Under the pieces are notes generated by a model, which worked only from the letters and a program-made list of their open reading frames with translations, ran no database searches and was not told where the DNA came from. A stretch of DNA of 18,997 nucleotides, from UHGV virus genome UHGV-0102822; one strand, given 5' to 3'. The translations under genes and the position numbers were made by a program. Position 1 is the first letter of the stretch; the number at the start of each line of letters is the position of its first letter. This document shows positions 1,669 to 18,972 of the stretch, piece by piece. This DNA is from a virus.

Positions 1669-3606
1669 ATGCTCAAGTTAAAACGAGAATATACAGTCCA
1701 AGACGTTACTGAAACCGATGGCGTTTTTGAAATCGCATTCAGCTCTGAAACTCCTGTTGAGCGTCAGATTGAAGATGAATACGGACATCCAGTTACGGTT
1801 AATGAAATTCTTGTTCATGACGGTCCTCATAATGCAGACCTTACAAGAATTAATAACGGTGCTGCTTTGCTGTTTAATCACGATTTCGATAAACATCTCG
1901 GAAAAGTAATTCCTGGTTCTGTTCGAATTGATTCAGACCGTATCGGTCGCGCAAATGTCCAATTCAGTAAACATGGCTCTTTAGCCCAAGAAGTTTATGA
2001 AAAAGTCAAAGAAGGAACAATCAGCAAGATTTCTTTCGGATATGACTTGAATGAATATGAACTCAAGGGTCAAGACTTATTAGTTACGCTTTGGTCTCCA
2101 TATGAAATAAGTTTTGTAACTGTTCCTGCTGACGATTCCGTGGGGTTGGGAAGATTACTAAATACAAATAACAAAAGCGTTAAGAAATTACGCGAATTAA
2201 ATTTAACTAACAAAGGTACTCGAATGAAACGCATTGATGAAATGACGAAAGACGAACTGGTAGAAATGACCATTGACGAAATCGAAATGCTGTCCGAAGA
2301 AGATCGCGCGAAACGTGAAGAAATTCTGGAAGAAGTAAAAGTCGAAACTGAAAATTCTGGTGATTCTGCTGTTGTCGAAACTGACAATTCTCCTGCTGTT
2401 GTTCCTGCTGGTGATGAATTAACAGAAGAAGAACGCGAAGAAGAAACGGAAGAAATTCTTGAAATCGCACAGCGCTACAAAGTAGCACAAAAAGACGTTG
2501 CAAGCGCAATCGCTAAAGGCATGACCGCACGTCAATTTAAACGTTCTATTAAACCTAACAAAGCTCCGGCGGTAATTCGTAACATGACTAAAGATACTAA
2601 AGTAAATCTGGAAGATAAATTCGACCTTGGCGATGCTGTTCGCTCTATGATGAATGGTAAAGCTGTTCGTGGCGCTGCTGCTGAATATACACAAGAAATG
2701 ACTCGTAAGCGTCTACAACGTGGTCTTAGCGTTTCAACCGGTATCTATATGCCTGTAAATGCTATTGCTCAGAACTCACGCGCAATTAACACTGTTCCTA
2801 CTGTTTCTCCAATTCAGGAAACTGTTCAGCGTTATGATTCATTCGTTGAAATGCTATTGAAAGGTACTGTTGCTGATAAATTGGGTGTTAACTTCCTGAC
2901 TGGTTTGAAAACTCCGATTTCTGTACCAAAACAAACTAAATCTTCTGTTGAAGCATTCGGTTTCGTTGATGAAAACGGTGAATCTCCAGAAGGCGAAAGC
3001 GCATTCACCAACATTAAGTTTGAACCAAAAACATTTACTGGTGGTAACCCAATTTCTCGTCAAGCTCTGTTGACTCTGCCAAATCTGGGCGCTTTCATTT
3101 CTGACCACATTGTTAAGCACTCACGCGCTAAACTGGAAGGTCTGATGTTTGGTTCTCTGACTGATGCTAAAGCACCTGATTCAATCGTTGCTCAGTTGAC
3201 TGCACAGGCAATGGGAATGACCTACAAAGAGTTCATCGTTGAAGCTGCAAAAGCTAAAGGCAATGGCGTTGATATGGCTGCATTTAAATATCTGATGGCT
3301 GCTGCTCTTGAAGGTGATTTGAAAACCACTCTGCGTGATGCTGGTGTTTCTGGTTATATCATCGACGACATGAACAAAATCGGCGGACATGATGTTATCG
3401 GTTCTGGTCTGGTTAAAGATGGTCAGGTTATCTCTGGTGACTTCTCCGCTGTAACTGTAGCTGAATGGGAAGGTCTTGCTCTTGACCTAGACGACACAAC
3501 TTATCGTAACAAAGGCGCTATCGTTCCTCGCGTTTGGGCTGATATCGATTGGAAAGTTTGTGCTGACGATCGTCTGTTCCTGCACGAAAAAAAGACGGGA
3601 GCTTAA
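1669..3606 (+). CDS. prohead protease (HK97 gp4 / peptidase S78-like) fused to an acidic scaffold-like linker and an HK97-fold major capsid protein domain
   Basis: The N-terminal ~165 aa align by eye with HK97 gp4 protease, including the His (LFNHDFD) and Ser (ISKISFGYD) catalytic contexts and the ISFVTVPADD segment. The middle is an acidic helical stretch (EEEREEETEEILEIAQRY). The C-terminal ~370 aa have an HK97-type capsid character (GDFSAVTVAEWEGLALDLDD, DDRLFLHEKK tail). The gene is followed by a strong terminator, as expected for a highly expressed capsid gene. Confidence 0.75.
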   Translation: MLKLKREYTVQDVTETDGVFEIAFSSETPVERQIEDEYGHPVTVNEILVHDGPHNADLTRINNGAALLFNHDFDKHLGKVIPGSVRIDSDRIGRANVQFSKHGSLAQEVYEKVKEGTISKISFGYDLNEYELKGQDLLVTLWSPYEISFVTVPADDSVGLGRLLNTNNKSVKKLRELNLTNKGTRMKRIDEMTKDELVEMTIDEIEMLSEEDRAKREEILEEVKVETENSGDSAVVETDNSPAVVPAGDELTEEEREEETEEILEIAQRYKVAQKDVASAIAKGMTARQFKRSIKPNKAPAVIRNMTKDTKVNLEDKFDLGDAVRSMMNGKAVRGAAAEYTQEMTRKRLQRGLSVSTGIYMPVNAIAQNSRAINTVPTVSPIQETVQRYDSFVEMLLKGTVADKLGVNFLTGLKTPISVPKQTKSSVEAFGFVDENGESPEGESAFTNIKFEPKTFTGGNPISRQALLTLPNLGAFISDHIVKHSRAKLEGLMFGSLTDAKAPDSIVAQLTAQAMGMTYKEFIVEAAKAKGNGVDMAAFKYLMAAALEGDLKTTLRDAGVSGYIIDDMNKIGGHDVIGSGLVKDGQVISGDFSAVTVAEWEGLALDLDDTTYRNKGAIVPRVWADIDWKVCADDRLFLHEKKTGA

Positions 3607-5512: not shown

Positions 5513-8368
5513 ATGGCTAATAACAAAGTCAAACACTATAGGACTGATGTCGCAGGACGTAAACCTGATGCTTCAAAAATGCTTGAAGGTGAAATTGCTA
5601 TTAACATGACCGATAAAAGCATTTTCACGAAACGTGGAACTGAAATCGTTAATATCGGTAATGGTGCTGATTCTGTCGTCGAAGGTGGACAGACTTTTAT
5701 CGGTGACGTTCAAGCAAATAAATTAAAATCTGACACTGATATTTCTCTGAAAAATTCCGAGAAAAGTTCTATCGTTTTTGAAGATGAACACGGTAAAGCA
5801 AAAGTCGAATTGAAATCTGAAAAGCAAACTGATTCCGAAGGCTCTTTGAAAGTTGTTGTTTCGAACGGTAAAAACGCTTCAACAGGTTATTCAACTTATG
5901 ATTTCGTTAATGGTCGTTTACGTTTACCAGTTGCACCAATTGAAGCTGATAACGCAACGCGTAAAGACTATGTTGATTCAGAGATTAAGAAAGTCTCCGA
6001 CGCAACAGGAACGAATCTGACAGCTTTAGAGAATAAAGTTAACGCTAACGACACGAAACAGACCGAAGCGAACACCGAGCTGGACAATCGTCTTAACGCT
6101 AAGATTGATTTAAACAATACGACTATTAACACGAAAGTTGACGCTAACAAAGCCGACGCAGATTCAAAGATTAAAGCTGTTAATGATCGTTTGACTGTTG
6201 ATAATCAGACTTTGACCGACATGATTAATACCAAGGTTTCAAAAGCTGGTGACACAATGACTGGCGACTTGACTGTTCCTAAATTGAATGCCGACGGTAT
6301 CAAAGCAAATTATATTAACTTGGGTCCTAATCCTAATAGTTTAGGTGCTAACAGTATTATGATGGGAGATTCCGATACAGGATTTAAATGGAGAGAAGAC
6401 GGTTGGTTAGACACTTATTCCAATAATGTTGTTGTATCAAGTGTTGCAGGATCTCAAAACTTTTTTAATCGTCAAGTTACGATTAGATATAGAAGCGATG
6501 GTGCAGGAAACGTTAACGGTCTGGCACCTGCTGGCACATCTTTGCTTAAAATCGATACAACGACCGATGGAAACGGAATCGGAGACGGATACACTTATTT
6601 CGGATTATCAAATGCCGGTAAATATCATAACTATCTGAGAGGAACCGGTGCAACGTTCATCGATTCTCATGACGGTGTGAGAATAAGTGGTCAGACTCAT
6701 ACTCTTGCGGGAGTTGTGACTTCTGGTAAATCAGTAGGAACTTATGATACTTATTCCATGGTCAACTGGACTCAAGACACACAAGCTTTCAACCGTCTGA
6801 GACATTTCAGAGCGTGTGGTGCGTCGACCTGGTGGCATGAACTTGTATGGGCACATCATGATAATCCAAAATATTCGGATTCATTAACTTGGTGGCAGGG
6901 TATCGGGGCTGATAACTGGATTGCATCATTGCACCAAAGCGGTAATTATAAGACAAACCGATTCGAAGCACACGGCAGAAGTGCCGCTTATAAGCTTTTC
7001 AGTGCGACAAGTGAAGCTGCTTATATTTCTGGTAACAACGATGGAAAAGAAAACTCATGGCTGTTAGGTAAAACAGATGCCGGAACAAACATCATGTTTC
7101 AGAATAATATGGTTACGGGTCAAAGTTCCGCCGTAGTTCTGAGACAGAACCATGTGCAGCTTAACGCTAATGGTTATAATACCCTGACAGTTCTTGATAA
7201 CAGAATTGAAATCGACGGTTCAAGATGGGCAGCAACAAACAGTCACGCTTGGTCAGATCAGTGGAATCAATTGCCTCCTGTTCTGCTTAATTTCGGAACA
7301 TCTTCAGGTGCAAGTGATTATTATCCTGGATTTGCATTGCAGCAAACGACTTCCCAGGCGGGATATCATACTCGTTTTGAAATGGGAATAATTCGAGCCG
7401 GTGCACAGTACGGAAAAGGTGTAATACGTGTTTCTGAACCGAACCATGCTGCGATGGCCGGAAAAAATCAGTCCATTTATGAATTTGATATAAACGGAAG
7501 ATTCGCATCACCGAATATTGTTGATACTCCTAAAGTTGAAACCCGACAGATAACAAGTTTCGGTGTTAATACTCTTAACGTGCTAGGCGGAAACTCAATT
7601 GCGTTTGGTGATGGTGACACCGGTATTCGTCAAAGAACTGATGGAAACTTAGAAATTCTGGCAAATAGCGTTCATGTTGCAACATTCGACCACGCGGGAA
7701 TTAATTCATTAACCACTATGCGCGTTTCTTCTCCAAACGATTCTCGTGGCGTATATGTTCATAATATCAGAACAGGCAGCGCAAACGCATTAATTGCTGG
7801 TCAAGTTGATGGCTGGGCTGATTGGGGAGCATGGCGTGAACGTCCTGCTGGAATGATCGTAGAAGCGGGTTCAACTGATAAATGCATTAACATTTGGAAA
7901 TCTGTTCAGTGGGGAACCGAATGGTCTGCTGGAATGGACATTTATAATCCAGCAGGCGGCGCTTATGAAGCCATGCTTCATGTTAGAGGTGCAAACTTTA
8001 CATTTAGAAGCGTTGATGGTGCTGCCCATGCTGTTTCTTGGGTTTCAACTTCCGATAAACGTCTGAAATCAAATCTTGAAAAAATCGAAAACGCAGTTGA
8101 TAAGGTTAATACGTTAACTGGTTACGTTTACGATAAGAAATCAGATTTGAAAGAAACTGAATATTCGTTCGTAACTCGCGAAGCAGGTATTATTGCTCAA
8201 GAACTGAAAGAAGTATTACCAGAAGCTGTTAGTTCTTTCGGCGAAGATGAAATTCTTGGTGTTAACTCTGCTGCTGTAAACGCGTTGCTTGTTAATGCTA
8301 TCAAGGAATTAAGTGCTGATTTGAAAGAAACAAAAGCGCGTCTTGATGCTTTAGAACTTGCTAAATAA
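5513..8368 (+). CDS. tail fiber protein with C-terminal intramolecular chaperone / autoproteolysis domain (peptidase S74-like)
   Basis: 951 aa. The shaft region has P2 gpH / T-even-fiber-like motifs (KAGDTMTGDL; MMGDSDTGFKWREDGW and AFGDGDTGIRQRTDGN repeats). The C-terminal ~105 aa (SDKRLKSNLEKIENAVDKVNTLTGYVYDKK...GIIAQELKEVLPEAV...ALLVNAIKEL...LKETKARLDALE) match the signature of the self-cleaving chaperone domain known from endosialidase and T5 pb1-type fibers. Confidence 0.8.
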   Translation: MANNKVKHYRTDVAGRKPDASKMLEGEIAINMTDKSIFTKRGTEIVNIGNGADSVVEGGQTFIGDVQANKLKSDTDISLKNSEKSSIVFEDEHGKAKVELKSEKQTDSEGSLKVVVSNGKNASTGYSTYDFVNGRLRLPVAPIEADNATRKDYVDSEIKKVSDATGTNLTALENKVNANDTKQTEANTELDNRLNAKIDLNNTTINTKVDANKADADSKIKAVNDRLTVDNQTLTDMINTKVSKAGDTMTGDLTVPKLNADGIKANYINLGPNPNSLGANSIMMGDSDTGFKWREDGWLDTYSNNVVVSSVAGSQNFFNRQVTIRYRSDGAGNVNGLAPAGTSLLKIDTTTDGNGIGDGYTYFGLSNAGKYHNYLRGTGATFIDSHDGVRISGQTHTLAGVVTSGKSVGTYDTYSMVNWTQDTQAFNRLRHFRACGASTWWHELVWAHHDNPKYSDSLTWWQGIGADNWIASLHQSGNYKTNRFEAHGRSAAYKLFSATSEAAYISGNNDGKENSWLLGKTDAGTNIMFQNNMVTGQSSAVVLRQNHVQLNANGYNTLTVLDNRIEIDGSRWAATNSHAWSDQWNQLPPVLLNFGTSSGASDYYPGFALQQTTSQAGYHTRFEMGIIRAGAQYGKGVIRVSEPNHAAMAGKNQSIYEFDINGRFASPNIVDTPKVETRQITSFGVNTLNVLGGNSIAFGDGDTGIRQRTDGNLEILANSVHVATFDHAGINSLTTMRVSSPNDSRGVYVHNIRTGSANALIAGQVDGWADWGAWRERPAGMIVEAGSTDKCINIWKSVQWGTEWSAGMDIYNPAGGAYEAMLHVRGANFTFRSVDGAAHAVSWVSTSDKRLKSNLEKIENAVDKVNTLTGYVYDKKSDLKETEYSFVTREAGIIAQELKEVLPEAVSSFGEDEILGVNSAAVNALLVNAIKELSADLKETKARLDALELAK

Positions 8369-8371
8369 TAA

Positions 8372-8391
8372 AAAGGGACGAAAGTCCCTTT
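8372..8391 (+). terminator. hairpin terminator after the tail fiber gene (A-tract / stem / T-tract, possibly bidirectional)
   Basis: AAAGGGAC-GAAA-GTCCCTTT with a GNRA loop. The T-run is short (TTT then C), so termination is probably partial. Confidence 0.5.
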
Positions 8392-8394
8392 CAT

Positions 8395-8405
8395 CTAAAT
8401 AATAA
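8395..8405 (+). promoter_or_regulatory. CTAAATAATAA motif (candidate late promoter) upstream of the 162-aa gene
   Basis: Second copy of an 11-bp direct repeat (first copy 8361-8371, overlapping the fiber stop) flanking the terminator hairpin. Followed by a 14-bp palindrome and the AAGGAT SD. Confidence 0.35.
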
Positions 8406-8433
8406 CGTTATTACTTAATAAAGGATATTTAAA

Positions 8434-8922
8434 ATGGCTGATAAAGCATATGATATTTTCGCTGGCTCTTACGTCAGTGTATTTTTCAACTCTGACGTAT
8501 TGAACAAAGATATCGACTCAGAGAAATTCGTAGAAGTTCCTGAAGTTGGCGCATTTCCTACGACTGGTATCGAACGTGAGGTAATCGTTGCTCCTAACTT
8601 TACTCACAAATACAGCCGTAAACTGGTTGGTCGTGGTTCTGTTCCTGATATCGATTTGACTGTTAACTATATTCCTGGGTCTATTCATGATCAGCTTTAT
8701 AAGCTTGCGGAAGATGGTAAACGTGGTCAGTTCAAAATCGTTTATTGGATGGATGCTTCTAAAGAAATCGGTGTTGCAAAAATGTATAACGGTTTCCTGT
8801 CAAGCGCTACTTATTCCGGTGGTGAATCAGAAGTTGCTGCACAGGCTATGACTCTGAGTGTTGATGGTGGTCCAATTGCCGAAGCTTTGGTTGATTTGAC
8901 TGCTCCAACTCCAGAAGGCTAA
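8434..8922 (+). CDS. putative tail tube or minor tail protein
   Basis: 162 aa, acidic, with a pattern loosely reminiscent of tail-tube-fold proteins (DIDLTVNYIPGS...KRGQFKIVYW...GGESEV). Flanked by a terminator on each side, suggesting an abundantly expressed structural gene. Assignment is weak. Confidence 0.35.
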   Translation: MADKAYDIFAGSYVSVFFNSDVLNKDIDSEKFVEVPEVGAFPTTGIEREVIVAPNFTHKYSRKLVGRGSVPDIDLTVNYIPGSIHDQLYKLAEDGKRGQFKIVYWMDASKEIGVAKMYNGFLSSATYSGGESEVAAQAMTLSVDGGPIAEALVDLTAPTPEG

Positions 8923-8943
8923 TCGTTTTATTGTTCAATCTTA

Positions 8944-8969
8944 AAAGACTCCTAACGGGGTCTTTTTTT
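8944..8969 (+). terminator. rho-independent terminator after the 162-aa gene
   Basis: AAAGACTCC-TAAC-GGGGTCTTT, a 9-bp stem with one G-U pair, followed by a run of seven T (three of them in the stem). Confidence 0.7.
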
Positions 8970-8973
8970 GGCT

Positions 8974-8983
8974 CTAAATAAAG
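8974..8983 (+). promoter_or_regulatory. CTAAATAAAG motif (candidate late promoter) upstream of the gpK-like gene
   Basis: Exact CTAAATAAAG immediately after the terminator, then AGAGG SD and ATG 9002. Confidence 0.4.
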
Positions 8984-9001
8984 TCAGAGGTGAATCTTAA
9001 A

Positions 9002-9418
9002 ATGTTTAAATTTCAAGCTGACTTATCAAAATTATTAAATCGTTATATCAACAAAGAACACAAATACGGTCAAAACGACTGTAATATCCTTGTCGCTGAA
9101 TATATCGATATGACTTGCGGAACAGATTACGCAAGCAAACTTATTTCCAAATATGACTCTGTTCAATCGGGTTTAAAACACTGCAAAGAACTTACAGGTT
9201 TTAATAACGTTTTAGAAGCTTGTGAAAAGCATTTCGAAAAATCAAACATTATCGAAACAGGGTCAATTGTCTTAATTAAAAAAACATACAGACGCCGAGT
9301 TTATTACGTTGCGTCGATTGTCTTTAACGACAAAGCAATTATTGAACACAACAACAAATACGCTTTGATAAACGTAAAAGATTTTGAATACGAATTAATT
9401 TTTAACAGGAGAAAATAA
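9002..9418 (+). CDS. NlpC/P60-type tail assembly protein (lambda gpK C-terminal domain-like)
   Basis: 138 aa from ATG 9002; the track's GTG 8990 overlaps the SD. Cys-His-His spacing typical of NlpC/P60 (QNDCNILVAEY ... IIEHNNKYALI). Sits directly upstream of the gpJ-like gene, as gpK does in lambda. Confidence 0.55.
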   Translation: MFKFQADLSKLLNRYINKEHKYGQNDCNILVAEYIDMTCGTDYASKLISKYDSVQSGLKHCKELTGFNNVLEACEKHFEKSNIIETGSIVLIKKTYRRRVYYVASIVFNDKAIIEHNNKYALINVKDFEYELIFNRRK

Positions 9419-12400
9419 TGGCTATTGTCGCAATTGGTGCAATCATCGCTGGTGCTTCTGCTGGTCTTGCTGCTTATGCCGCTGGGATGGCATTAGCTAT
9501 TTCAATCGGTATTGGTGTTGCTGTTGCTGCTGTTTCCGCTTTAATGTCAACAGCTATGCAACCAACTGTTCCTCGATTTAATACAAGTGATACCGCAACA
9601 ACATTAGGAACAACGTCTGATCCTTCAACTGTATTACCGATTATCTACGGTGAACAACGCACAGGAACAATTAACGTTTGGGATGCTGTAGGAAATGATA
9701 CGACTTATTTGGTGCAAATTTTTGCAATTGCCGAAGGTGAAGTTGATAGCTTTAAAAACCTTTATATCGATAACAAGCGTATTCTGAATGATGCCGTTTA
9801 TCGTGATGGAATTGTTTCAAGAGGTTCAATCGTTTCTCAATATCAAGACTATGTGCAAGTTGAATTCTCTGTTGGTAAAGAACAAGGTCATCATTTCAAA
9901 CTTGCTGAACAATACTTAGGAAATGACCCAAGTGGCTGGCCTGTTTCTGCTACAGGTAACGGTGTCGCTTCTTGCTGTATCGTAATGCAGAAACGAAATT
10001 CAGACTTACAAAACCAAGCTGATATCCTACAACCTAACAGTCAGGTCGCTGTTGATGTTAGAGGACGTTTGATTACTGACTTAAACACGGGACAAATCGT
10101 TCCATCTCGCAACGGTGCAAGTCAGATTGTCGATTATCTGACGAACGAACGATACGGATTAGGAGTTTCACTTGATAAAATTAACCTTGATAGTTTTAAA
10201 GCTGCTGCAAATTATGCTTTAAGCAATCAACTATTTTCCGATGGTGCAACAGACCCTAACGCAACGTTTAAAGAAAACTTAACTCAGCTTGCAGGTGCTT
10301 TTAACGGAATGATTTTCGAATCATTCGGACAAGTTTATTGCAAAATCGATGGTCCTGATGTTGTTTCATTTGATTTCGATGAAGAAAATATTTCTGCTGG
10401 TTCAGTTTCGTTGAATTCAGGTGGTTCAGAGGAATATTACAATACGCTGAACGTGAAATATCAAGATCCTGCAATCGATTATTCCGAGCAAGTTCTTCGT
10501 TATCCATCTGACGTGACGACCGACAAAACAATTCAATATGATAAACGTATTATCGCGAAAGATGTTAATTATCGTTTTGTGAAATCTAAAGACCAATTGG
10601 ACAAACTTGCTTCAATCGAACGTAACAAATCACTGTTAAAACAGATTATCAGCTTTAGTTCTCCTGATTCCTATACTATTCAAGTTTGGGATGTTATCAG
10701 AGTTAACTTTGATGAATTAAATTTGCAAGATTCGTTATGGCGCGTTACTAACGTTAGTCGTTCAATGAATAAGGGCGTTGCTGGTATCGTTAACATCACA
10801 GCTACTGAATATATTGAAGAAGTTTATACCGATTTAGACTATGCGAAAGATCCTAATAACAACGGTTCAAACGTACCAAACAAAGGATACTTGATTGCTC
10901 CTACGAATCTTAAAGTTTCAAGCGTTTCAGAAACAGCTTTAGGAAGAACTTTTAAAGTTTCATGGAATTCAGAGCAAGATTTTAACCGTTCAGGTTTTTA
11001 TATTCAATATGCAGTTGCAGGAACAAACCAATGGACTCAAGCAGGATTCACATCAGGAAATTCTTACTTGATTATGAACATGGACCCATTGCAGAAATAT
11101 GATATTCGTGTTTGTGCTTCTGGTGTTTTCTATACGTCTGAATGGGTTTATTCAATGAATGTTAACCCTGATGTCGTTTATAATCTGCCTAAAGTTCGTG
11201 GTCTAAGACTTGTTAACTCTGAGTTTAATAACAACGTTACGCAACAAACGCAATTTGAATTTGCATGGGATAATCAGAGTTCAGAGAAATTCGAAGTTGA
11301 CGGCGTTCAACAGACTTTCGAACAAGTATTTCAGTATTACGAAATCAAAATCACTGGACAAAGACCTGTTGTATACAGAACTAAAGATTTGAGCTTCATT
11401 TATGATTTACGAATGAACCAGCAAAACGGTATCAGTCGTGAAATTAAATTTGAAATCACTGCTGTTGGTTATTCAGGTTTAAGATCTGAACCTACTGAAT
11501 TAATCGTAAGAAATAATCAAGCTCCTGCAATAATCGGTTTTACTGCTTCGAATGGTCCTGGATTATTGATGTGTTCTTGGAACGATCCAATGAGTGTTGC
11601 ACCTGATTATTCTGGAACTGTTATTCAAGTTTCAAATAATCCTGAATTCACTGACATTAATCAAGTTCAGTTGAGTTCTAGCCAGTTCATTGAAAACTTC
11701 CCGTTAGTTGACGGTGAATATTATGTTCGAGCTGCATGGTATGACGTTTTCGGACAAGACCAATTAGTTTGGACTGAATCAGTTTATATCAACATGAAAT
11801 GGGATATTCCATGGACAGAAGATATGAAAGACCAGTTAAACGACTTGCTTGATTTAGACCAACGAGTTGATGGTGCTATCGAGGACGCTTTAGAACTCGC
11901 AAATGCTTATACCGATACTCAGATAACATCAACTAAGCAGGAAGTAACAACCGAGATTGATCAGAAGATCAGCACGTCTAATACAACGTTGCATACTCAG
12001 ATAACGAATGAAACGCAAGGCGCTATCAATCAGGCTATTACGATTCAAACGGCTGATTTTGACGGTAAGTTAAACTCTGCTATAACCGAAGTTGAGAAAA
12101 CCCAAGCGGATGATCGTGCTGCAACAGCTTCACAAATCAGCCAATTAAAAGCTGAAACTACGGATATGGTCGCGACTGTTTCTACCGAAGCAAAAGCAAG
12201 CGTTGACGATTTAGCAGGAACTGTTAACAGTAAATGGGCTGTTTCTACAAACGCCGATGGTGTCGTAGCTGGTATTAGTATGTTGGCATCTAAGGACGCT
12301 GCGGGAAATAAAGCCTCAAGCATTATTTTTAACGCTGATAAGATTGCTATAACAAATAATAACACTGCTCCTAATGCTGTTCCACCGTTCATGGTCGCAG

Positions 12401-13098
12401 ATGATAGAGTTTATTTACAAAGCGCGATGATTCGCAATGCTTCGATCGGTAATGCTCAAATTGCTAATGCTGCAATTGATAATGCCAAAATTGCTAATGC
12501 TGCAATTAATAACGCGCAGATTCAAGACGGTGCTATTACAACAGCGAAAATTGGTAATGCTCAAATCGGTTCAGCACAAATTGCCTGGGAAATATCCTCT
12601 GATAACTGGGTTCCTTCCGGTGGTACTCAAGGATGGACAATTAGAAAAGATGGTTGGGCTTCATTCCAAAACGTTACAGTTAAAGGAAATATTCAAGCTG
12701 ATTCTGGTTATTTCTCAGGAGAAATCAGAGGTGGTTCTGGTTATTTCACAGGGACTGTTTACGCTGACAGAATCGAAGGTGACGTTATCAAAATGGGATT
12801 TGTCGATCCGTGGGGATCTGTTCATATTCCTGCTGTTGGTTGGAGAAGAATGATTGCTATTCCTAACGTTGCAATCGCCGGAAGAACTTATTCTGGTGGT
12901 ACTGGTTGGGGTGGTGGCAAAGCGTGGTTAAGACTCTCAAACGGCCAAGAAGTTGTTTACGTTCAATCTCAATCTCTAAACGGTTCAAACGGTGGTGTCG
13001 CATACATCGAAGCGGGACAAGCTGTTGATTTAACTTATACGGTCGAATTAAACCGAGCAGAAGCCTCAAGGGCAGTTTATTTTATCAGTAAAGTTTGA
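9418..13098 (+). CDS. central tail fiber / tip attachment protein (lambda gpJ-like) with a fused hydrophobic Gly/Ala-rich N-terminus
   Basis: 1226 aa. After a ~45-aa hydrophobic stretch comes a gpJ-type N-terminal domain (VLPIIYGEQRTGTINVWDAVGN...LVQIFAIAEGEVDSF), then fibronectin-III-like repeats (APTNLKVSSVSETALGRTFKVSWN...), a coiled region, a 5-residue-period repeat tract and a C-terminal domain. The start ATG overlaps the gpK-like stop (TAATG). Confidence 0.75.
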   Translation: MAIVAIGAIIAGASAGLAAYAAGMALAISIGIGVAVAAVSALMSTAMQPTVPRFNTSDTATTLGTTSDPSTVLPIIYGEQRTGTINVWDAVGNDTTYLVQIFAIAEGEVDSFKNLYIDNKRILNDAVYRDGIVSRGSIVSQYQDYVQVEFSVGKEQGHHFKLAEQYLGNDPSGWPVSATGNGVASCCIVMQKRNSDLQNQADILQPNSQVAVDVRGRLITDLNTGQIVPSRNGASQIVDYLTNERYGLGVSLDKINLDSFKAAANYALSNQLFSDGATDPNATFKENLTQLAGAFNGMIFESFGQVYCKIDGPDVVSFDFDEENISAGSVSLNSGGSEEYYNTLNVKYQDPAIDYSEQVLRYPSDVTTDKTIQYDKRIIAKDVNYRFVKSKDQLDKLASIERNKSLLKQIISFSSPDSYTIQVWDVIRVNFDELNLQDSLWRVTNVSRSMNKGVAGIVNITATEYIEEVYTDLDYAKDPNNNGSNVPNKGYLIAPTNLKVSSVSETALGRTFKVSWNSEQDFNRSGFYIQYAVAGTNQWTQAGFTSGNSYLIMNMDPLQKYDIRVCASGVFYTSEWVYSMNVNPDVVYNLPKVRGLRLVNSEFNNNVTQQTQFEFAWDNQSSEKFEVDGVQQTFEQVFQYYEIKITGQRPVVYRTKDLSFIYDLRMNQQNGISREIKFEITAVGYSGLRSEPTELIVRNNQAPAIIGFTASNGPGLLMCSWNDPMSVAPDYSGTVIQVSNNPEFTDINQVQLSSSQFIENFPLVDGEYYVRAAWYDVFGQDQLVWTESVYINMKWDIPWTEDMKDQLNDLLDLDQRVDGAIEDALELANAYTDTQITSTKQEVTTEIDQKISTSNTTLHTQITNETQGAINQAITIQTADFDGKLNSAITEVEKTQADDRAATASQISQLKAETTDMVATVSTEAKASVDDLAGTVNSKWAVSTNADGVVAGISMLASKDAAGNKASSIIFNADKIAITNNNTAPNAVPPFMVADDRVYLQSAMIRNASIGNAQIANAAIDNAKIANAAINNAQIQDGAITTAKIGNAQIGSAQIAWEISSDNWVPSGGTQGWTIRKDGWASFQNVTVKGNIQADSGYFSGEIRGGSGYFTGTVYADRIEGDVIKMGFVDPWGSVHIPAVGWRRMIAIPNVAIAGRTYSGGTGWGGGKAWLRLSNGQEVVYVQSQSLNGSNGGVAYIEAGQAVDLTYTVELNRAEASRAVYFISKV
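12430..12585 (+). repeat. tandem 15-bp / 5-residue periodic repeat tract inside the gpJ-like gene
   Basis: About nine consecutive pentapeptide units: IGNAQ IANAA IDNAK IANAA INNAQ IQDGA ITTAK IGNAQ IGSAQ. The underlying DNA repeats AATGCTCAAATTGCT / AATGCTGCAATTGAT. Confidence 0.7.
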
Positions 13099-13122
13099 TT
13101 TCTTTCCCCCAAATCCGTTTTT

Positions 13123-13132
13123 CTAAATAAGA
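13123..13132 (+). promoter_or_regulatory. CTAAATAAGA motif (candidate late promoter) upstream of the small-gene cluster
   Basis: Lies 28 nt upstream of ATG 13160; AAAGGAGAAAG SD in between. Confidence 0.35.
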
Positions 13133-13159
13133 CATGGAGGTCTTAAAAGGAGAAAGAAA

Positions 13160-13456
13160 ATGGGTGTTGAAGCCATCATTTCTTTCGCGGGACTGCTATG
13201 CGCTGGCTTTGGATGGATTTGGTCTCAAAAGAACGCAATGGAAGCCGACGCTTTAAAAATCGAACAGAGACTATCTGAAATCGAGAAAAGCGTTGCTCTT
13301 AATAGTGCGACCGATTCAAACGCAAATACTGAATTAACCAACGTTCGTGATTCGTTTAAGGAGTTTAAAGGTGATATGAAAAGTATAGACAATCGAATTA
13401 GAGAAATCGAAATTCGATTAGCGGTGATAGACAGTGAAACGAAAAGAAATAAATAA
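13160..13456 (+). CDS. small membrane-anchored coiled-coil protein (N-terminal TM helix plus helical domain)
   Basis: 98 aa. N-terminal hydrophobic segment AIISFAGLLCAGFGWIW, followed by heptad-like charged helical sequence (ALKIEQRLSEIEKS ... IDNRIREIEIRLAVID). The architecture resembles an i-spanin or other signal-anchored periplasmic protein, but function is unassigned. Confidence 0.5.
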   Translation: MGVEAIISFAGLLCAGFGWIWSQKNAMEADALKIEQRLSEIEKSVALNSATDSNANTELTNVRDSFKEFKGDMKSIDNRIREIEIRLAVIDSETKRNK

Positions 13457-13889
13457 TTACAAGAAAACCCTTTTTGATAAACAAAATAAAAGATGTGCTT
13501 TAACTGGGATAGAAATTACCGATGTTAATAAAGCCCATTTAGACCATGACCACGCTCTTGATGGTTCTCAAGCTGGACGATGCCGAGGATTATTACTCGC
13601 ACAGGCAAACGTCCTTGAGGGCAGATTAAAACATCAATTCATGTATTCAGGTTTAGCGAAGCACATCGAATATATTGATTTTTTAAAAAGATTGGTAACT
13701 TATCTCGAAAAAGATAATTCTAAAAATCCTATTCATCCTCAACTTGTAACAGACCTATCAAAGCGCTTTTCGAAAATGACGTTAAAGCAAATGAAAGAGA
13801 CTTTATTAGCAGAGGACATAAATCCAGTTGGTGATAAAAAATCTCTCATTAACTTGTACAAACAAAATTTAAAGGTGAAGTATGATTGA
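13434..13889 (+). CDS. recombination endonuclease VII homolog (T4 gp49-like, His-Me/HNH-type junction resolvase)
   Basis: 151 aa from GTG 13434, overlapping the upstream ORF by 23 nt. Clear similarity to T4 endonuclease VII as I recall it: HLDHDH, AG-x-x-RGLL, N...LEG..KH.F, SGL, and LVTYLEKDNSKNPIHPQLV versus T4 LLTYLKSDYTQNNIHPNFV. Confidence 0.8.
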   Translation: MKRKEINNYKKTLFDKQNKRCALTGIEITDVNKAHLDHDHALDGSQAGRCRGLLLAQANVLEGRLKHQFMYSGLAKHIEYIDFLKRLVTYLEKDNSKNPIHPQLVTDLSKRFSKMTLKQMKETLLAEDINPVGDKKSLINLYKQNLKVKYD

Positions 13890-14094
13890 AAAAATGAAAG
13901 CTGCATTCAAGAAACTTCCAGCAATGACAGGGGACTTTAAAAAGAAATTCATTTACGCGATGATTGCAATGGCTGTTTATAATTACATCGTTGTTCCGTG
14001 TGCATTGAGTTTCTTCGGAATAGTTCTTCCTATCGTTCCTCTTGATGAAGCTATGAAATATATCTTTGCAATTGTTTCATTTGGGAGTATGTAA
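13882..14094 (+). CDS. small hydrophobic membrane protein (holin-like size, possible dual start)
   Basis: 70 aa. N-terminus MIEKMK has two in-frame ATGs (13882 and 13894) separated by a Lys-containing tripeptide. A ~30-residue hydrophobic core (FIYAMIAMAVYNYIVVPCALSFFGIVLPIV) and a short hydrophobic C-terminus. Start overlaps the endo VII stop; AAAGGTGA SD. Confidence 0.45.
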   Translation: MIEKMKAAFKKLPAMTGDFKKKFIYAMIAMAVYNYIVVPCALSFFGIVLPIVPLDEAMKYIFAIVSFGSM

Positions 14095-14633
14095 TGGCGA
14101 AACTTGGTGGAGTTAAAAAAGACTTAGACAAATGGCGAATAAAAGAATCTGATCAGTTCTCTAAAAGAGTAACTAAAGCGTCTAAACTCGCTTCTGTTGA
14201 GTTACAACGAAAGATTAATCGACGTGTTGAAGGACCTGTGAATTTCACCAAGAACGCCGTTGGGTTCAGATTTAAGATTGATAAAGAAGGAACAACTAAC
14301 AGAATCTTTATCAAAGACGTTCAGGCGAATTATCTTTCACACTTGATAGATGATAACAGTCCGATTAACAAATATGTTCCAACAGGGGTAAGAGGTTCGA
14401 CTAACCAGTTCGGTAACATTCCAGGATTAAAAACTCGTAGAAACCTAGAGGCAGTCAAACAAAAGAAAGATGGTATTAACAGAACGATTCTGATTAAGAC
14501 AAATGTTAAAAAACAGAACAAAAGAGTTATTGCTATTTTCAAACGTCATCAAACTCGTAAGAAATCTATTGGTTCTTGGACTGATATTGGTAATGACATC
14601 ATAAAAACGGTTCGTCGTGTTGCTACTAAATAA
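14094..14633 (+). CDS. hypothetical highly basic protein
   Basis: 179 aa, Lys/Arg-rich throughout. ATG overlaps the upstream stop (TAATG); GGGAG SD. No recognisable catalytic motif. Confidence 0.5.
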   Translation: MAKLGGVKKDLDKWRIKESDQFSKRVTKASKLASVELQRKINRRVEGPVNFTKNAVGFRFKIDKEGTTNRIFIKDVQANYLSHLIDDNSPINKYVPTGVRGSTNQFGNIPGLKTRRNLEAVKQKKDGINRTILIKTNVKKQNKRVIAIFKRHQTRKKSIGSWTDIGNDIIKTVRRVATK

Positions 14634-14636
14634 AAG
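14626..14636 (+). promoter_or_regulatory. CTAAATAAAAG motif (candidate late promoter) plus AAAAGGAGA Shine-Dalgarno
   Basis: Part of CTAAATAAAAGAAAAGGAGACAAAATG, 24/27 identical to the cassette at 3707-3733. Overlaps the stop codon of the preceding gene. Confidence 0.45.
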
Positions 14637-14649
14637 AAAAGGAGACAAA

Positions 14650-14970
14650 ATGAACTTAAATGATTTTGAAACATATCGTGTTGACGAACTCGATTCTATT
14701 TTTATCAAAGAGCACAATCCAGAGTCGATGACTATTCCTTATAGCTTTGAACTGGTGAAAGAAACTCGTATAAAAAGGAATCTTCAAAACGACCAAAACG
14801 TTTTTATTGTTAGCACTCAGAAAAAGAAACCTCGTTATCATTTCAAGAATAATGAAATCGTAGAAATCAATGGTCCTTTCTTTGAACAAAATGCTGTTTG
14901 TATTTTTCAGCAAGAATATATTCATAAAGGATTCAGAATGATTGGATATTTCTTCCAATTCATCGAGTAA
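14650..14970 (+). CDS. hypothetical protein
   Basis: 106 aa from ATG 14650; the track's 14617 start is a GTG inside the promoter/SD cassette. Followed by a strong terminator. Confidence 0.5.
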   Translation: MNLNDFETYRVDELDSIFIKEHNPESMTIPYSFELVKETRIKRNLQNDQNVFIVSTQKKKPRYHFKNNEIVEINGPFFEQNAVCIFQQEYIHKGFRMIGYFFQFIE

Positions 14971-14973
14971 TCA

Positions 14974-15005
14974 AAAGGAGTTATCTTCGTGATAGCTCCT
15001 TTTTC
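14974..15005 (+). terminator. rho-independent terminator
   Basis: AAAGGAGTTATC-TTCGT-GATAGCTCCTTT, a 12-bp stem with one G-U pair, followed by a T-run. Confidence 0.65.
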
Positions 15006-15007
15006 GG

Positions 15008-15018
15008 CATAAATAAAG
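15008..15018 (+). promoter_or_regulatory. CATAAATAAAG motif (candidate late promoter) upstream of the chaperone / tape measure operon
   Basis: Variant of the recurring motif, immediately after the terminator and 31 nt before ATG 15050. Confidence 0.35.
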
Positions 15019-15049
15019 TAAACATTTAAATTAACTATAGGATTAAGAA

Positions 15050-15346
15050 ATGAAATTCGAAGAAATGATCGCCGCTCTCGGAGCAAAACGAGAAGTTGTA
15101 GAAATCAAAGGTTTTAAATTTTATGTTCGCGCAATGACCGTTGAAGAATTTGGTAAATTCTTTTTTATGGAAGACCAGACCGATAATATGATTCTGAAAT
15201 GCATTGAGAACGAAGACGGATCCCCTGTTTTTGAAAATATCGAACAAGTCAAACAACTTTATACCACCGTTCGCGCTCAACTTTCTGCTGCTGTTTCTGC
15301 TGCTTCTGTTATGAAAGAAGAAACTCACGCTGTGGAAAAGAATTAA
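15050..15346 (+). CDS. tail assembly chaperone (lambda gpG-like) by position and frame relationship
   Basis: 98-aa acidic ORF directly upstream of the tape measure gene. The downstream ORF is open in the -1 frame across its 3' end (from 15235). Confidence 0.5.
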   Translation: MKFEEMIAALGAKREVVEIKGFKFYVRAMTVEEFGKFFFMEDQTDNMILKCIENEDGSPVFENIEQVKQLYTTVRAQLSAAVSAASVMKEETHAVEKN

Positions 15347-15381
15347 GGCAGAATCCTTATAAAATATTCAAATTCAGAACC

Positions 15382-15729
15382 ATGTTGCGTAGAGGTTTTA
15401 CCGAACGTGAAATTCTGGATATGAGTATTAAGGATTTCTATGAACTGTGGATATATGAAACTTTCATTGAACCTCAAGGTCCTGCTGTAAATGACTTACA
15501 TCAAGCGCATATAGCATTTTCTGTTTTTGCTAATAATCCAAATATTACAAAAGAAGGTTCGAAGAAATTAAAACTGAAAGATTTCATGTTCATCAAGGAT
15601 AAAGTTTTTAAATCTCCTGAAGAACTGGAAGAAGAACAGAAAAAAGCCGCAGAAGCCAACAGAAAGAAAATGGAATCTATGTTCGACCCGAAACTTCTTG
15701 CGAAAGCAAAAGCTAAAAATAGGAAATAA
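15382..15729 (+). CDS. tail assembly chaperone extension (gpT-like part), probably expressed as a G-T fusion by -1 frameshifting
   Basis: The reading frame is open from 15235, in the -1 frame relative to 15050-15346. There is no Shine-Dalgarno before ATG 15382. The product has a basic C-terminus and the gene ends 2 nt before the tape measure start. Coordinates are as given in the ORF track; the true product probably starts at 15050 and shifts frame near 15334-15340. Confidence 0.4.
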   Translation: MLRRGFTEREILDMSIKDFYELWIYETFIEPQGPAVNDLHQAHIAFSVFANNPNITKEGSKKLKLKDFMFIKDKVFKSPEELEEEQKKAAEANRKKMESMFDPKLLAKAKAKNRK

Positions 15730-15731
15730 TA

Positions 15732-18077
15732 ATGGCGAATTCTCGTTATGATGTTGAGATTCGCGGAGATAATAAAGGACTGTCTACTGCTGTAAAAGAC
15801 TCTATGGACGAACTGAATAAACTTGATTCAGCCGCTCAGGGTCTTTTTAGTAATTTCACAGGTCCACTAAATGGTCTCAGCGATGGTCTCAGCACGATTC
15901 AAAGTATGTCCCCTGCGTTACGCGCATTGGGTGCAGCGGGGTTAGTTGCAGGTGCTGGTTTTGCTGCAATTAATAAAGCTGCTGAAACTGTTAACGTATT
16001 AAATCAGGTTAACACAACAACTGGCGTTTCTATTGAAATGCTTCAACAGTTGCAATCAACGTTCAAAGCTACCGGAATGGACGTTGAGAAATTCGGTGAT
16101 TTAAACAAAGACGCAATGGATAAACTCGGTGATTCTTTGAGAGCTGGCGGTGGTGGTATTGCCGACGACTTAGAAGAATGGGGTTTAAAACTTGAAGATT
16201 ATGCAAAATATGCTGGTGATGCCGAAGGTGGTATTAAAGCATTAATCGACACGTTCTATCAATTAAGAGCCGCTGGTAAATCATCTGCTGAAATTACTAA
16301 CGCAATGGAATCAATGGCGTCTGATGGTTCTCATTTGATTTCAACATTACAGAATTTTTCTAATACCCAAGACGCATTAAACGCAATTCAAGGTCAAACA
16401 GTTTCAATTACTCAAGACGTTGCCGACGAATTCAAAGAATATGAAAGAAACATGAATTCTTTGAAGAAAGCAACTAATGAATTCACGGTCGAAGCTGCTA
16501 GTCCATTAGTTCGTGAATTTAACAATCTTTATGAGTGGATGGATGGTATTGATTGGAGTGAAACGTCTTTTGCGAAATGGCTAAGAGAGAATAACAAAAA
16601 GGGTATAACTCCTTCTGGTATGTCCTCTGGTCAAGTGCAGAATATCGGAAAGTCTGTTGAAGCAATCGAAATTGAAAAGCGTCAGGCGTTTATTGCAGAA
16701 AATGCCAAGTTGCTTAAAAAACAAGTTAATCAGCTAGTTCGTTTAGCTGAACAAGAAACGATGGCAAATAAGGCTCGCCAGAAAGTCTTAGAAGAAAAAG
16801 CGAAGAAAGAAAAAGACGCTGCTGATAAAGCTGAACGTGAAAGAAAATCTGCTGCTGATAAAGCCGAAAGGGAACGTAAAGCTGCAATGGCTAAAGCCAA
16901 AGCTGATTATGACAAAATGATGGCTGATCGTGCTCAGGCAGTTGAATCTCTGAAACAGTTAGACGTTGCGGTTATTGCTCAAGAAGGACGTTCATATGCT
17001 TCTCAGATTAATCAGACTCAGCAAGCACTAACAAAGCTTCAAGAACTAAGAGACAAAGGGATAATCTCACAGGAGCAATTCCTAGAACGTCGTAATTCTC
17101 TATTGATTAACTCGTCAAAAGAATTCTCCGACAGTCTTAAGGCTAATCCTGCTGACATTGGCATTATCACTCAGTCGATGAATCAAATGTTCGATATTCA
17201 AAAGCAAGAACTGGATATTAAACGTCAACAGAACTTGATTTCAGAACAGCAATACAACGAACAGTTAGAGAATCTCCAAATTGCACATCAAGAGAAGATG
17301 AAAGCAATTAAAGAGATTGATGCTAATCAGGTGAATATGCAGAACTTGAATTCAATTGGTTTCGCAACTGATGAAGAAAGAATGGCATTAGAGCAAGAAG
17401 CATTAAATCAACAGTTCGAAAGGTTCAGAGAACAGAATCAGAAAATGTACGAATCTGGACTTTTGTCGCATGAACAATTTTTAGAGCAAAAAAGACGACT
17501 AGACAAGGCTTATTCTGTTCAGTCTGAAAATATTGCTATGATGGAAATTCAAACGAAAATGGGAATGTATAACGGTTTTGCTCAAGGCATGGCTGGTGTT
17601 ATTTCCGGTATTTCGGGTGAAAACTCTAAAGCCGCTCAAGCTGCGTTTGCAGTAGCTAAAGGAACAGCTATCGCAAATGGTATGTTAAACGCATATCAAT
17701 CTGCAACTAAAGCAATGGCAACTTATCCTGGTCCTTTGGGATACGCATTAGCCGCATCAAGTTATGCGCAAGTTTTAGGACAAGTTATGTCCATGAAATC
17801 TGTGAATATGACTGGTATGGCTCACGATGGCATTTCTGAAATTCCAAGAGAAGGAACATGGCTGCTTGATGGTGGTGAAAGAGTCGTTGATCAGAGAACT
17901 AACGGAGATTTGAAAGACTTCTTGAATAATCAAAGCGAGTCTAAGACTCAGCCTATTGATGCTCGTGTAATCGTACAAGGAAACGTGACTGATCAGCGTT
18001 GGTTTGCTGAACAACTCAAGAAGCAAGAAAAGATTATCACATCAATTGTTCAATCAGGAAACAGACGCAAAATGTAA
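15732..18077 (+). CDS. tail tape measure protein
   Basis: 781 aa. Long predicted helical, charged coiled-coil central region with an internal tandem repeat (AADKAERERK x2), and a Gly/Ala-rich hydrophobic segment near the C-terminus (AQAAFAVAKGTAIANGMLNAYQSATKAMATYPGPLGYALAASSYAQVLG). Preceded by the chaperone pair. Confidence 0.8.
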   Translation: MANSRYDVEIRGDNKGLSTAVKDSMDELNKLDSAAQGLFSNFTGPLNGLSDGLSTIQSMSPALRALGAAGLVAGAGFAAINKAAETVNVLNQVNTTTGVSIEMLQQLQSTFKATGMDVEKFGDLNKDAMDKLGDSLRAGGGGIADDLEEWGLKLEDYAKYAGDAEGGIKALIDTFYQLRAAGKSSAEITNAMESMASDGSHLISTLQNFSNTQDALNAIQGQTVSITQDVADEFKEYERNMNSLKKATNEFTVEAASPLVREFNNLYEWMDGIDWSETSFAKWLRENNKKGITPSGMSSGQVQNIGKSVEAIEIEKRQAFIAENAKLLKKQVNQLVRLAEQETMANKARQKVLEEKAKKEKDAADKAERERKSAADKAERERKAAMAKAKADYDKMMADRAQAVESLKQLDVAVIAQEGRSYASQINQTQQALTKLQELRDKGIISQEQFLERRNSLLINSSKEFSDSLKANPADIGIITQSMNQMFDIQKQELDIKRQQNLISEQQYNEQLENLQIAHQEKMKAIKEIDANQVNMQNLNSIGFATDEERMALEQEALNQQFERFREQNQKMYESGLLSHEQFLEQKRRLDKAYSVQSENIAMMEIQTKMGMYNGFAQGMAGVISGISGENSKAAQAAFAVAKGTAIANGMLNAYQSATKAMATYPGPLGYALAASSYAQVLGQVMSMKSVNMTGMAHDGISEIPREGTWLLDGGERVVDQRTNGDLKDFLNNQSESKTQPIDARVIVQGNVTDQRWFAEQLKKQEKIITSIVQSGNRRKM
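16818..16883 (+). repeat. imperfect 33-bp tandem duplication inside the tape measure gene
   Basis: GCTGCTGATAAAGCTGAACGTGAAAGAAAATCT followed by GCTGCTGATAAAGCCGAAAGGGAACGTAAAGCT, encoding AADKAERERKS / AADKAERERKA. The Arg codons are swapped between synonymous forms. Confidence 0.7.
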
Positions 18078-18147: not shown

Positions 18148-18504
18148 CTAAAGCACAGCCTGAAAACTTTGCCACTCAGGTGCATGCATAAGTACCGCGC
18201 TTTGTTCATTTCTATTCCAAATAGGAATCGCTTTCCCTATATAGAAAAAATGTGATGTTGCATCATTACTTTTCTTTTCACTACTTTTTCCTGCTTTTGT
18301 ATATACGACAACAAGATCGCCAGCGCGAACAGGTTTATCCGGAAACCAAAATGTTTCGTAAATACCAGTGTTTACCGACTCATTCTCAAATCCCGTTTGT
18401 AGCAGTATAAACTCTCCAATATTGCATGAACTGTCAACTCGAATGACAATTCGTTCCTTATCTAAGTTTCCAGGTTCGCGAATTGCTGTAATATTAACTT
18501 TCAT
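18148..18504 (-). CDS. hypothetical small soluble protein, second gene of the minus-strand cassette
   Basis: 118 aa. Its ATG overlaps the stop of the upstream membrane-protein gene by 4 bp, suggesting translational coupling. No recognisable motif. Confidence 0.55.
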   Translation of the reverse strand: MKVNITAIREPGNLDKERIVIRVDSSCNIGEFILLQTGFENESVNTGIYETFWFPDKPVRAGDLVVVYTKAGKSSEKKSNDATSHFFYIGKAIPIWNRNEQSAVLMHAPEWQSFQAVL

Positions 18505-18947
18505 GGCTTGACCACCTTTGCAGCTATCCCCCCGACAGTGAGCACACTACCAAAAGCTAACGCGAGCACAGCGGCAGTCGGCTGAGTTGACCAGTTTGAA
18601 GTGGCATATCCAAAGGCAGAGCCTGAAATTAGAAAACATGTCACATGCATTATTTCCAAAGCAATTTTTGTTTTGAATTTTTCTTCTAATACTCCTACAA
18701 GTTTATCGGATGTATGAAACTTATCGCGAATCACACGCAAATCATTGCATTCACCATCTAATCTTTCAATCTCATCAAGCAACATTCGTTGTACCGCAGC
18801 AGAGCTAAGCTCCTCATCAGTTAGCTCTCTGCGAAGATTTGAGAATGATTTGCGTCCAGAATTCCCCTTGGGAACAGCTGTTGGTATCCCCACACTTACA
18901 GGCTCTTCTGGTTCCGTATCAGGTTGATGCCTATTCCCAAAAACCAC
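18501..18947 (-). CDS. hypothetical membrane protein (cytoplasmic helical N-domain plus two C-terminal TM helices), first gene of the minus-strand cassette
   Basis: Probable GTG start at 18947, 6 nt after a perfect AAGGAG; the track's TTG 18971 lies upstream of that SD. C-terminal hydrophobic helices IALEIMHVTCFLISGSAFGYA and TAAVLALAFGSVLTVGGIAAKVV. Uses GC-ending codons (ccg, gcg, gcc, cag, ctc, ggg) that are unusual for the phage late genes. Confidence 0.55.
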   Translation of the reverse strand: MVFGNRHQPDTEPEEPVSVGIPTAVPKGNSGRKSFSNLRRELTDEELSSAAVQRMLLDEIERLDGECNDLRVIRDKFHTSDKLVGVLEEKFKTKIALEIMHVTCFLISGSAFGYATSNWSTQPTAAVLALAFGSVLTVGGIAAKVVKP

Positions 18948-18972
18948 GAAATGCTCCTTTCGTATATTCAAA

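Follow-up and report, generated by a model that had tools for sequence, protein, structure and literature searches.

Can an enzyme of the endonuclease VII family do without the structural zinc site by which the family is usually recognised? Junction-resolving enzymes have T4 endonuclease VII as their founding member, and it is in wide use as a reagent for mismatch and branch cleavage. In the literature its four-cysteine zinc site counts as part of the signature of the family, and in T4 the site is required for DNA binding. The question is raised by a gene of the virus genome UHGV-0102822, in an 18,997-nucleotide stretch that was analysed as a whole (hereafter, the window). A preliminary description of this DNA had read the gene product as an endonuclease VII homolog that appears to have lost three of the four zinc-ligand cysteines, and took it for either a junction-resolving enzyme with a zinc-independent variant of the fold, or a copy that had degenerated or been repurposed.

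The gene and its place in the phage

The window covers the late genes of a temperate siphophage. Its gene order begins with a lambda-family portal, a prohead protease-capsid fusion, a tail fibre with an S74 chaperone, a major tail protein and DUF6950, continues with a 1226-aa J-like tail tip protein, a 98-aa TM/coiled-coil protein, the endonuclease VII homolog and a 70-aa two-TM protein, and closes with a minor tail protein, TAC-like and T-like proteins and a 781-aa tape measure. The nuclease gene therefore lies between the J-like tail tip gene and the minor-tail, TAC and tape-measure genes, with the following features:

13434..13889, plus strand: endonuclease VII homolog gene, 151 aa, GTG start and TGA stop (ORF list)
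13423..13427, plus strand: Shine-Dalgarno-like GGTGA, 6 nt 5' of the GTG start, read from the sequence and of presumed function
13434..13456, plus strand: overlap of 23 nt between the endonuclease VII gene and the upstream 98-aa TM/coiled-coil ORF (13160..13456)
13882..14094, plus strand: 70-aa two-TM ORF (phrog_2024) downstream of the endonuclease VII gene, its ATG overlapping the end of that gene by 8 nt

The GTG at 13434 is the earliest start codon available downstream of the previous stop, and the ortholog in E. coli PSS-15 starts at the same GTG. This start and the 23-nt overlap with the upstream gene, both already noted in the preliminary description, were confirmed from the ORF list (13160..13456 against 13434..13889). 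The overlap suggests translational coupling with the 98-aa ORF, and at the orthologous Pantoea and Klebsiella loci the nuclease gene overlaps its upstream ORF to a similar extent. On the other side, the 8-nt overlap places the 70-aa ORF in a common operon with the nuclease gene. The gene is thus bracketed and overlapped by two small membrane-protein ORFs (13160-13456, with an N-terminal TM segment and a coiled coil, and 13882-14094), which could be holin- or spanin-like or tail-associated.

No near-identical DNA was found in phage and plasmid collections, and the related element is so far known from bacterial assemblies alone, where it is a prophage; the best match is in E. coli PSS-15 (85.6% nucleotide identity). 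The PSS-15 prophage spans about 34 kb (NZ_AP027709, about 3,347,000-3,381,300; loci L001/L012) and is bounded by ybiT and a large serine recombinase on one side and by ldtB on the other. Its annotation contains no other recognisable recombination nuclease and no replication genes. An ldtB-adjacent prophage end was found in most of the loci examined, including those of Enterobacter and Klebsiella (L007, L008, L010, L011), which implies that the integration site is conserved from genus to genus. The gene order and the slot of the endonuclease VII gene are common to the four prophages examined, from E. coli PSS-15, Enterobacter, Pantoea stewartii and Klebsiella aerogenes, which makes the gene a stable part of this phage lineage, transcribed together with its neighbours. 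About 11.8 kb separate its start from the end of the portal gene upstream (50-1615), and in PSS-15 the terminase is upstream of the portal.

Several other features of the window deserve mention. In lambda-like phages, the TAC and tape measure genes normally precede the tip genes. The tail module here (5513-18077) has an unusual order, with the tape measure last and beside the prophage end, and this order is kept in Enterobacter, Pantoea and Klebsiella (L007-L011). Just past the tape measure gene lie two overlapping minus-strand ORFs, 18148-18504 (118 aa) and 18501-18971 (156 aa), neither of which has a Pfam match; in PSS-15 the host ldtB stands directly at their position, and they may be cargo genes or mark a different junction. 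The ORF at 1669-3606 (645 aa) encodes a fusion of a prohead serine protease (Peptidase_S78) with a major capsid domain of the HK97 type.

Homology to T4 endonuclease VII and the fate of the zinc ligands

The homology to endonuclease VII that had been proposed for the 151-aa protein is borne out over its full length. Matches were obtained to Pfam PF02945 (Endonuclease_7; 42.2 bits against a cut-off of 23.6), to PF09124 (Endonuc-dimeris; 26.9 bits against a cut-off of 22, E=5e-6, residues 100-147) and to PHROG 423, 'endonuclease VII' (E=4e-35). In phmmer, residues 9-147 aligned with residues 11-153 of T4 endonuclease VII (PDB chains 1e7d/1en7; E=1.3e-27), and hhalign matched the profile of the enterobacterial clade described below to T4 with a probability of 99.9% (E=2e-32, 38% identity over 150 columns). 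The UHGV-0102822 protein itself is 37-38% identical to the T4 enzyme over 139-150 residues.

The predicted structure leads to the same assignment. An AF2 model with the clade alignment as input reached a mean pLDDT of 78, and its comparison with experimental structures by Foldseek returned the T4 endonuclease VII fold (1e7l_A and 2qnf_A, TM 0.74, E about 1e-10, 150 columns), with no significant match in the PDB beyond T4 endonuclease VII chains. In this model the C-terminal dimerisation region is helical (pLDDT 85-89), the beta-hairpin loop 41-50 is poor (about 47), and the former knuckle region reaches about 86 without any metal, although AF2 is blind to metal occupancy. No NCBIfam model matched the protein, and PADLOC gave no meaningful match, nothing beyond a trivial Cas9-HNH similarity of 14 bits. 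By sequence and predicted fold, then, the protein belongs to the Endonuclease_7 homology family, in which the following parts can be recognised:

13494..13505, plus strand: former zinc knuckle C21-A-L-T24 (T4 C23-L-I-C26), the first Cys retained and the second ligand replaced by Thr (alignments)
13536..13553, plus strand: catalytic segment H35-L-D37-H38-D-H40 (T4 H38..H43), with D37 as the Mg ligand and H38 as the general base by homology
13581..13586, plus strand: C50-R51, where R51 is the invariant active-site T4 R54 and C50 an extra Cys at T4 V53
13596..13619, plus strand: helix N-terminus L55-A-Q-A58-N59-V-L-E62 (T4 C58-N-L-C61-N62-A-A-E65; alignments)
13731..13874, plus strand: C-terminal T4-type dimerisation domain, residues 100-147 (PF09124; T4 alignment to residue 153/157)

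Residues were mapped in three independent alignments (phmmer, MAFFT and hhalign), which were identical and placed no gap beside any ligand column. The zinc ligands that the preliminary description had given for T4 (Cys23/26 and Cys58/61) are correctly numbered. C23, C26, C58 and C61 of T4 correspond here to C21, T24, L55 and A58, so its view that a single cysteine stands at a T4 ligand position holds, and formal alignment with T4 gp49 and the family found no set of four Cys or His ligands at the zinc site. It had also been right about the catalytic segments: all three alignments keep HLDHDH (residues 35-40, T4 38-43) and the N...E motif (ANVLEG at residues 58-63 against CNAAEG at T4 61-66). 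In full, T4 D40/H41/H43 correspond to D37/H38/H40, R54 to R51, N62 to N59 and E65 to E62; the roles of the T4 residues as Mg ligand and general base are summarised in PMC6083498 and PMC5481773. At the helix N-terminus, aliphatic L55 and A58 stand in place of both Cys ligands, with the catalytic N59 and E62 retained. No other Cys or His was found near either former CxxC of the protein, in which the sole further Cys is C50. The family has been described by a conserved 'CX2-4C ... DHDH ... CX2C' pattern (PMC6083498). Since C21 alone aligns with the structural zinc site CX2-4C...CX2C, the protein is a homolog by sequence and fold, not a canonical zinc-type endonuclease VII.

This state is fixed among the close relatives of the window protein. 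A search of 5.8 billion clustered proteins yielded 19 such relatives with 54-99% identity, making a clade of 20 analysed sequences; where a source is named, it is a genome of Escherichia, Enterobacter, Klebsiella or Pantoea. In all 20, residue 21 is Cys, 24 is Thr or Ser and 58 is Ala. At 55, 18 members carry Leu, Ile or Val, and the two from Klebsiella aerogenes carry Cys. The clade alignment has 39 invariant columns, A58, N59, V60 and L61 among them, and the catalytic residues are invariant with the exception of E62, which is Asp in one member. Relative to the E. coli PSS-15 ortholog (88% amino acid and 85.6% nucleotide identity), dN/dS is 0.19 (dN 0.07, dS 0.37; Nei-Gojobori), and the gene is under purifying selection.

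The two K. aerogenes proteins, P0016 and P0017 (L010 and L011, 8001-8492), combine Cys at the T4-C58 position with Ile at the C50 position. They retain two of the four T4 ligands, and may represent an intermediate or a reversion.

Could the gene nevertheless be a catalytically dead or decaying remnant of endonuclease VII, kept in the tail operon as a structural passenger or a pseudo-enzyme? In T4, DNA binding does not survive the loss of the zinc site, and the gene does sit among tail genes. Such a fate is nonetheless very improbable in view of the dN/dS of 0.19, of a full-length ORF in four genera with no frameshifts or truncations, of the 39 invariant positions that include every catalytic residue but E62, and of the conservation of D, H, H, R and N in essentially all of the roughly 100 ligand-less relatives described below. 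Judged from its sequence, the homolog is not a decayed copy. Of the either/or reading given in the preliminary description, it is thus the zinc-independent variant that the evidence favours over the degenerate or repurposed copy, given the intact catalytic set and dimerisation domain, the fold match over 150 columns, the fixed state in the clade, the synteny and the dN/dS. Zinc independence and nuclease activity are both predictions here, drawn from sequence comparison and modelling.

Ligand loss across the family and its origin in the clade

An exhaustive HMMER scan of 1.84 billion representatives of 50%-identity clusters gave 178 matches at E<=1e-3, and the ligand columns were tabulated for 167 homologs aligned with T4, the 19 of the clade included (168 sequences counting P0001, which is 99% identical to the UHGV-0102822 protein). 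Four Cys or His ligands were present in 64 of the 167 (CCCC in 40, CCHC in 23), three ligands in 3, and two or fewer in 99, or 81 once the enterobacterial clade is collapsed; about 60% of the recovered relatives thus lack at least two ligands, counts that are biased by a search query that is itself ligand-less. Among homologs that cover these columns, D40 and H41 are invariant and H43 is missing from a single sequence, which has a gap there; R54 and N62 are invariant or close to it, in the zinc-type and ligand-less groups alike. Schizo-T4 phage VH7D and the T4-like matches retain CCCC. Ligand-less proteins were found in the isolated lytic phages PMBT16 (an rV5-like Escherichia phage), Vibrio S4-7 and Vibrio BD5; these phages are viable, and the subtype is therefore not restricted to prophages.

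Because the ligand-less state is common among its relatives, the 151-aa protein exemplifies a widespread subtype and is no one-off. By these sequence counts, ligand-less endonuclease VII is a natural subtype of considerable size, not an isolated event. Endonuclease VII has been placed among the His-Me fingers that have a zinc knuckle, many other His-Me fingers having none (PMC5714182). In the literature searched, no description of or biochemical data on ligand-less endonuclease VII were found, and the subtype, widespread in sequence data, is unremarked there; one match to 'zinc-independent' concerned endonuclease VIII and is irrelevant to endonuclease VII.

The ligand columns also vary within each group. 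Among the zinc-type relatives, 23 of 64 have His for Cys at the T4-C58 position (the CCHC site). Among the ligand-less relatives, the first ligand position is Cys in 78% and Asp in 21%, and where it is Asp, the T4-C58 position is nearly always D, N, Q, S or T, a covarying polar pair.

Where did the enterobacterial clade lose its ligands? With the ligand columns removed, the 20 closest sequences outside the clade are all zinc-type and T4-like (p-distance 0.56-0.64), the closest ligand-less sequence outside it being at 0.65, and the nearest neighbour of the clade was zinc-type in 499 of 500 column bootstraps. An NJ tree, shallow evidence used here for the distribution of the zinc state while the nearest neighbours are taken from the distance bootstrap, shows that state to be clustered (16 changes, against about 51 with shuffled states); on it the clade adjoins the T4 group. 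That the nearest relatives are all zinc-type and T4-like suggests an independent loss in a lineage derived from a T4-like gp49, a pattern in the sequences that unequal rates could mimic. It is tempting to go further and speculate that the zinc site has been discarded repeatedly, the clade being a recent independent loss that gave a fully active zinc-free resolvase in which the retained Cys or Asp has a non-metal role; we hold this wider scenario tentatively, as having slightly less than an even chance of being correct.

What may replace the zinc, and what the protein may do

According to a passage of PMC6083498 that cites Giraud-Panis (1995), the T4 mutants C23S and C61S and the double mutant C26S/C58S have DNA binding and activity abolished. 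A zinc-free enzyme would therefore need compensating changes. In the present protein, small or aliphatic residues have taken the three vacated ligand positions. The clade-invariant V60 and L61 stand where T4 has A63 and A64, and across the family the T4-64 position is L, F or W in about 78% of ligand-less relatives against L or F in about 38% of the zinc group. Residue frequencies in the two groups revealed no clear compensating residue outside the three ligand columns, and the group differences at positions 64, 79, 84 and 108 are weak and phylogenetically confounded. Presumably, to judge from the residues at these positions, hydrophobic packing substitutes for the zinc clamp. C21, for its part, is probably a hydrogen-bonding residue or one that packs against and caps the helix N-terminus, a conjecture that fits the alternation of Cys and Asp at this position.

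A different solution would be a re-wired structural metal site, in which C21 and C50 bind the metal together with a nearby His, Asp or Glu, possibly from the partner subunit. C21 is invariant in the clade, and a Cys at the first ligand position is found in 78% of the ligand-less relatives; C50 is present in 17 of the 20 clade members, and both of the K. aerogenes proteins that lack it have Cys at the T4-C58 position. However, Cys in the C50 column does not track ligand loss, occurring in 30% of zinc-type and 33% of ligand-less relatives. P0007 has neither C50 nor a Cys at 55, there is no further Cys or His inside the two former CxxC segments, and the first position is Asp in 21% of the ligand-less relatives. 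In addition, C50 lies five residues before position 55 in an extended strand, which by treble-clef geometry would put it too far away. A re-wired site is accordingly a poor prospect, though not quite so poor as that of a dead remnant. C50 as a substitute ligand, or as half of a C21-C50 pair, was rejected because Cys is equally frequent in that column with or without the zinc ligands. The apparent swap of a cysteine from 50 to 55 in P0016 and P0017 was likewise set aside as a single event in two near-identical Klebsiella proteins.

The explanation we prefer, and consider likely on the strength of sequence and model, is that the protein is an active, zinc-free, dimeric junction or branch nuclease with T4-type chemistry that debranches DNA concatemers for packaging. 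A hallmark of T4 gp49-type enzymes is a domain-swapped homodimer that in Mg2+ cuts four-way junctions and other branched DNA. This protein, too, would be an endonuclease that works as a homodimer, depends on Mg2+, has the beta-beta-alpha-Me (His-Me finger) fold and recognises DNA by its structure, its substrates being branched molecules such as Holliday junctions, Y-junctions and heteroduplex loops. By homology, H38 would activate water and D37 and N59 would hold the catalytic Mg2+, with R51, H40 and E62 completing the site. The catalytic module would lack the Cys4 zinc clamp and be held instead by aliphatic packing, with V60 and L61 replacing T4 A63 and A64, and the long helices and C-terminal domain would form the dimer that holds the junction open. 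Replicated or recombined phage DNA could in this way be debranched so that a lambda-type terminase can package it. Expression with the late structural genes would place this debranching before packaging; since the gene is in the tail module, away from replication and packaging genes, the packaging role is proposed by analogy with T4 gp49.

Alternatively, the nuclease may have been repurposed, as an F-CphI-like homing endonuclease, as an HNH-type enzyme that assists the terminase, or as a weapon directed at competing phage or host DNA. Both F-CphI, a homing endonuclease, and Hpy99I, a restriction enzyme, do use the endonuclease VII catalytic motif (PMC6083498, PMC2699513). The gene also has the look of an inserted cassette, lying between tail genes and flanked by two small membrane-protein ORFs. 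The terminase-associated HNH endonucleases of cos phages are encoded by genes that adjoin the terminase or portal genes. Here the nuclease gene is inside the tail module, with the terminase not adjacent. Nor does the protein resemble an F-CphI-like homing endonuclease, since its motif is N-terminal, its position is syntenic in the four genera examined and the CxxC pairs are absent. A T4-like architecture preserved from end to end, N-terminal helix and PF09124 domain included, a position that is stable across the genera examined, unlike that of a sporadic homing element, and the lack of a meaningful match in PADLOC to a defence system all argue against such repurposing. We regard it as unlikely, if the least unlikely of the three alternatives.

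Implications and comparison with known systems

If full-length homologs work without zinc, and most detectable relatives lack the site, the description of the family needs changing. If zinc-free homologs function, specific compensating substitutions become testable; should the zinc-free reading be true, the clade would be a test case for how a packed core replaces treble-clef zinc knuckles. Zinc-free enzymes could also better tolerate chelators and oxidants and provide a template for metal-independent mismatch or junction nucleases, a practical interest that is modest. The biology is incremental, as other members of the His-Me finger superfamily are already known to have lost the zinc knuckle, and the likely role, DNA debranching before packaging, is an ordinary one.

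A precedent for such loss exists among the zinc-ribbon ribosomal proteins L31, L33, L36 and S14, in which C+ and C- paralogs reflect a recurrent loss of the Cys4 site with fold and function retained. The C+/C- concept is summarised in PMC3872050. These proteins differ from endonuclease VII in that their fold and function are unrelated, and their loss of zinc ligands is tied to a Zur-regulated zinc economy, whereas nothing here shows such regulation.

Within the wider superfamily, the 'DHHRN' enzymes F-CphI and Hpy99I share the D-H-x-H...R...N motif and the beta-beta-alpha-Me fold (PMC6083498). Unlike the protein described here, which combines a resolvase architecture with the absence of a zinc site, they keep CX2-4C...CX2C, occur in other domain contexts and cut specific duplex sequences. 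In F-CphI, moreover, the motif is C-terminal behind another domain (PMC6083498), whereas here it is N-terminal in a T4 architecture.

The closest well-characterised counterpart is T4 endonuclease VII itself (gp49; 1en7, 1e7d, 1e7l, 2qnc, 2qnf). The two proteins have the same length, conserved catalytic residues and a common order of elements: an N-terminal helix, the beta-beta-alpha-Me module, long helices and a C-terminal dimerisation domain. They differ in that C26, C58 and C61 of T4 are replaced by T, L and A. Their settings differ as well, T4 being a large lytic myovirus and the present phage a temperate siphophage of the ~34-kb class with the gene inside its tail module. The proteins of PMBT16, Vibrio S4-7 and Vibrio BD5 have the same catalytic set and likewise lack the zinc ligands, and that of Vibrio phage S4-7 has the identical C/T/L/A pattern. 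These three proteins are 29-36% identical to that of UHGV-0102822, and by distance the clade is closer to the zinc-type, T4-like enzymes than to any of the three.
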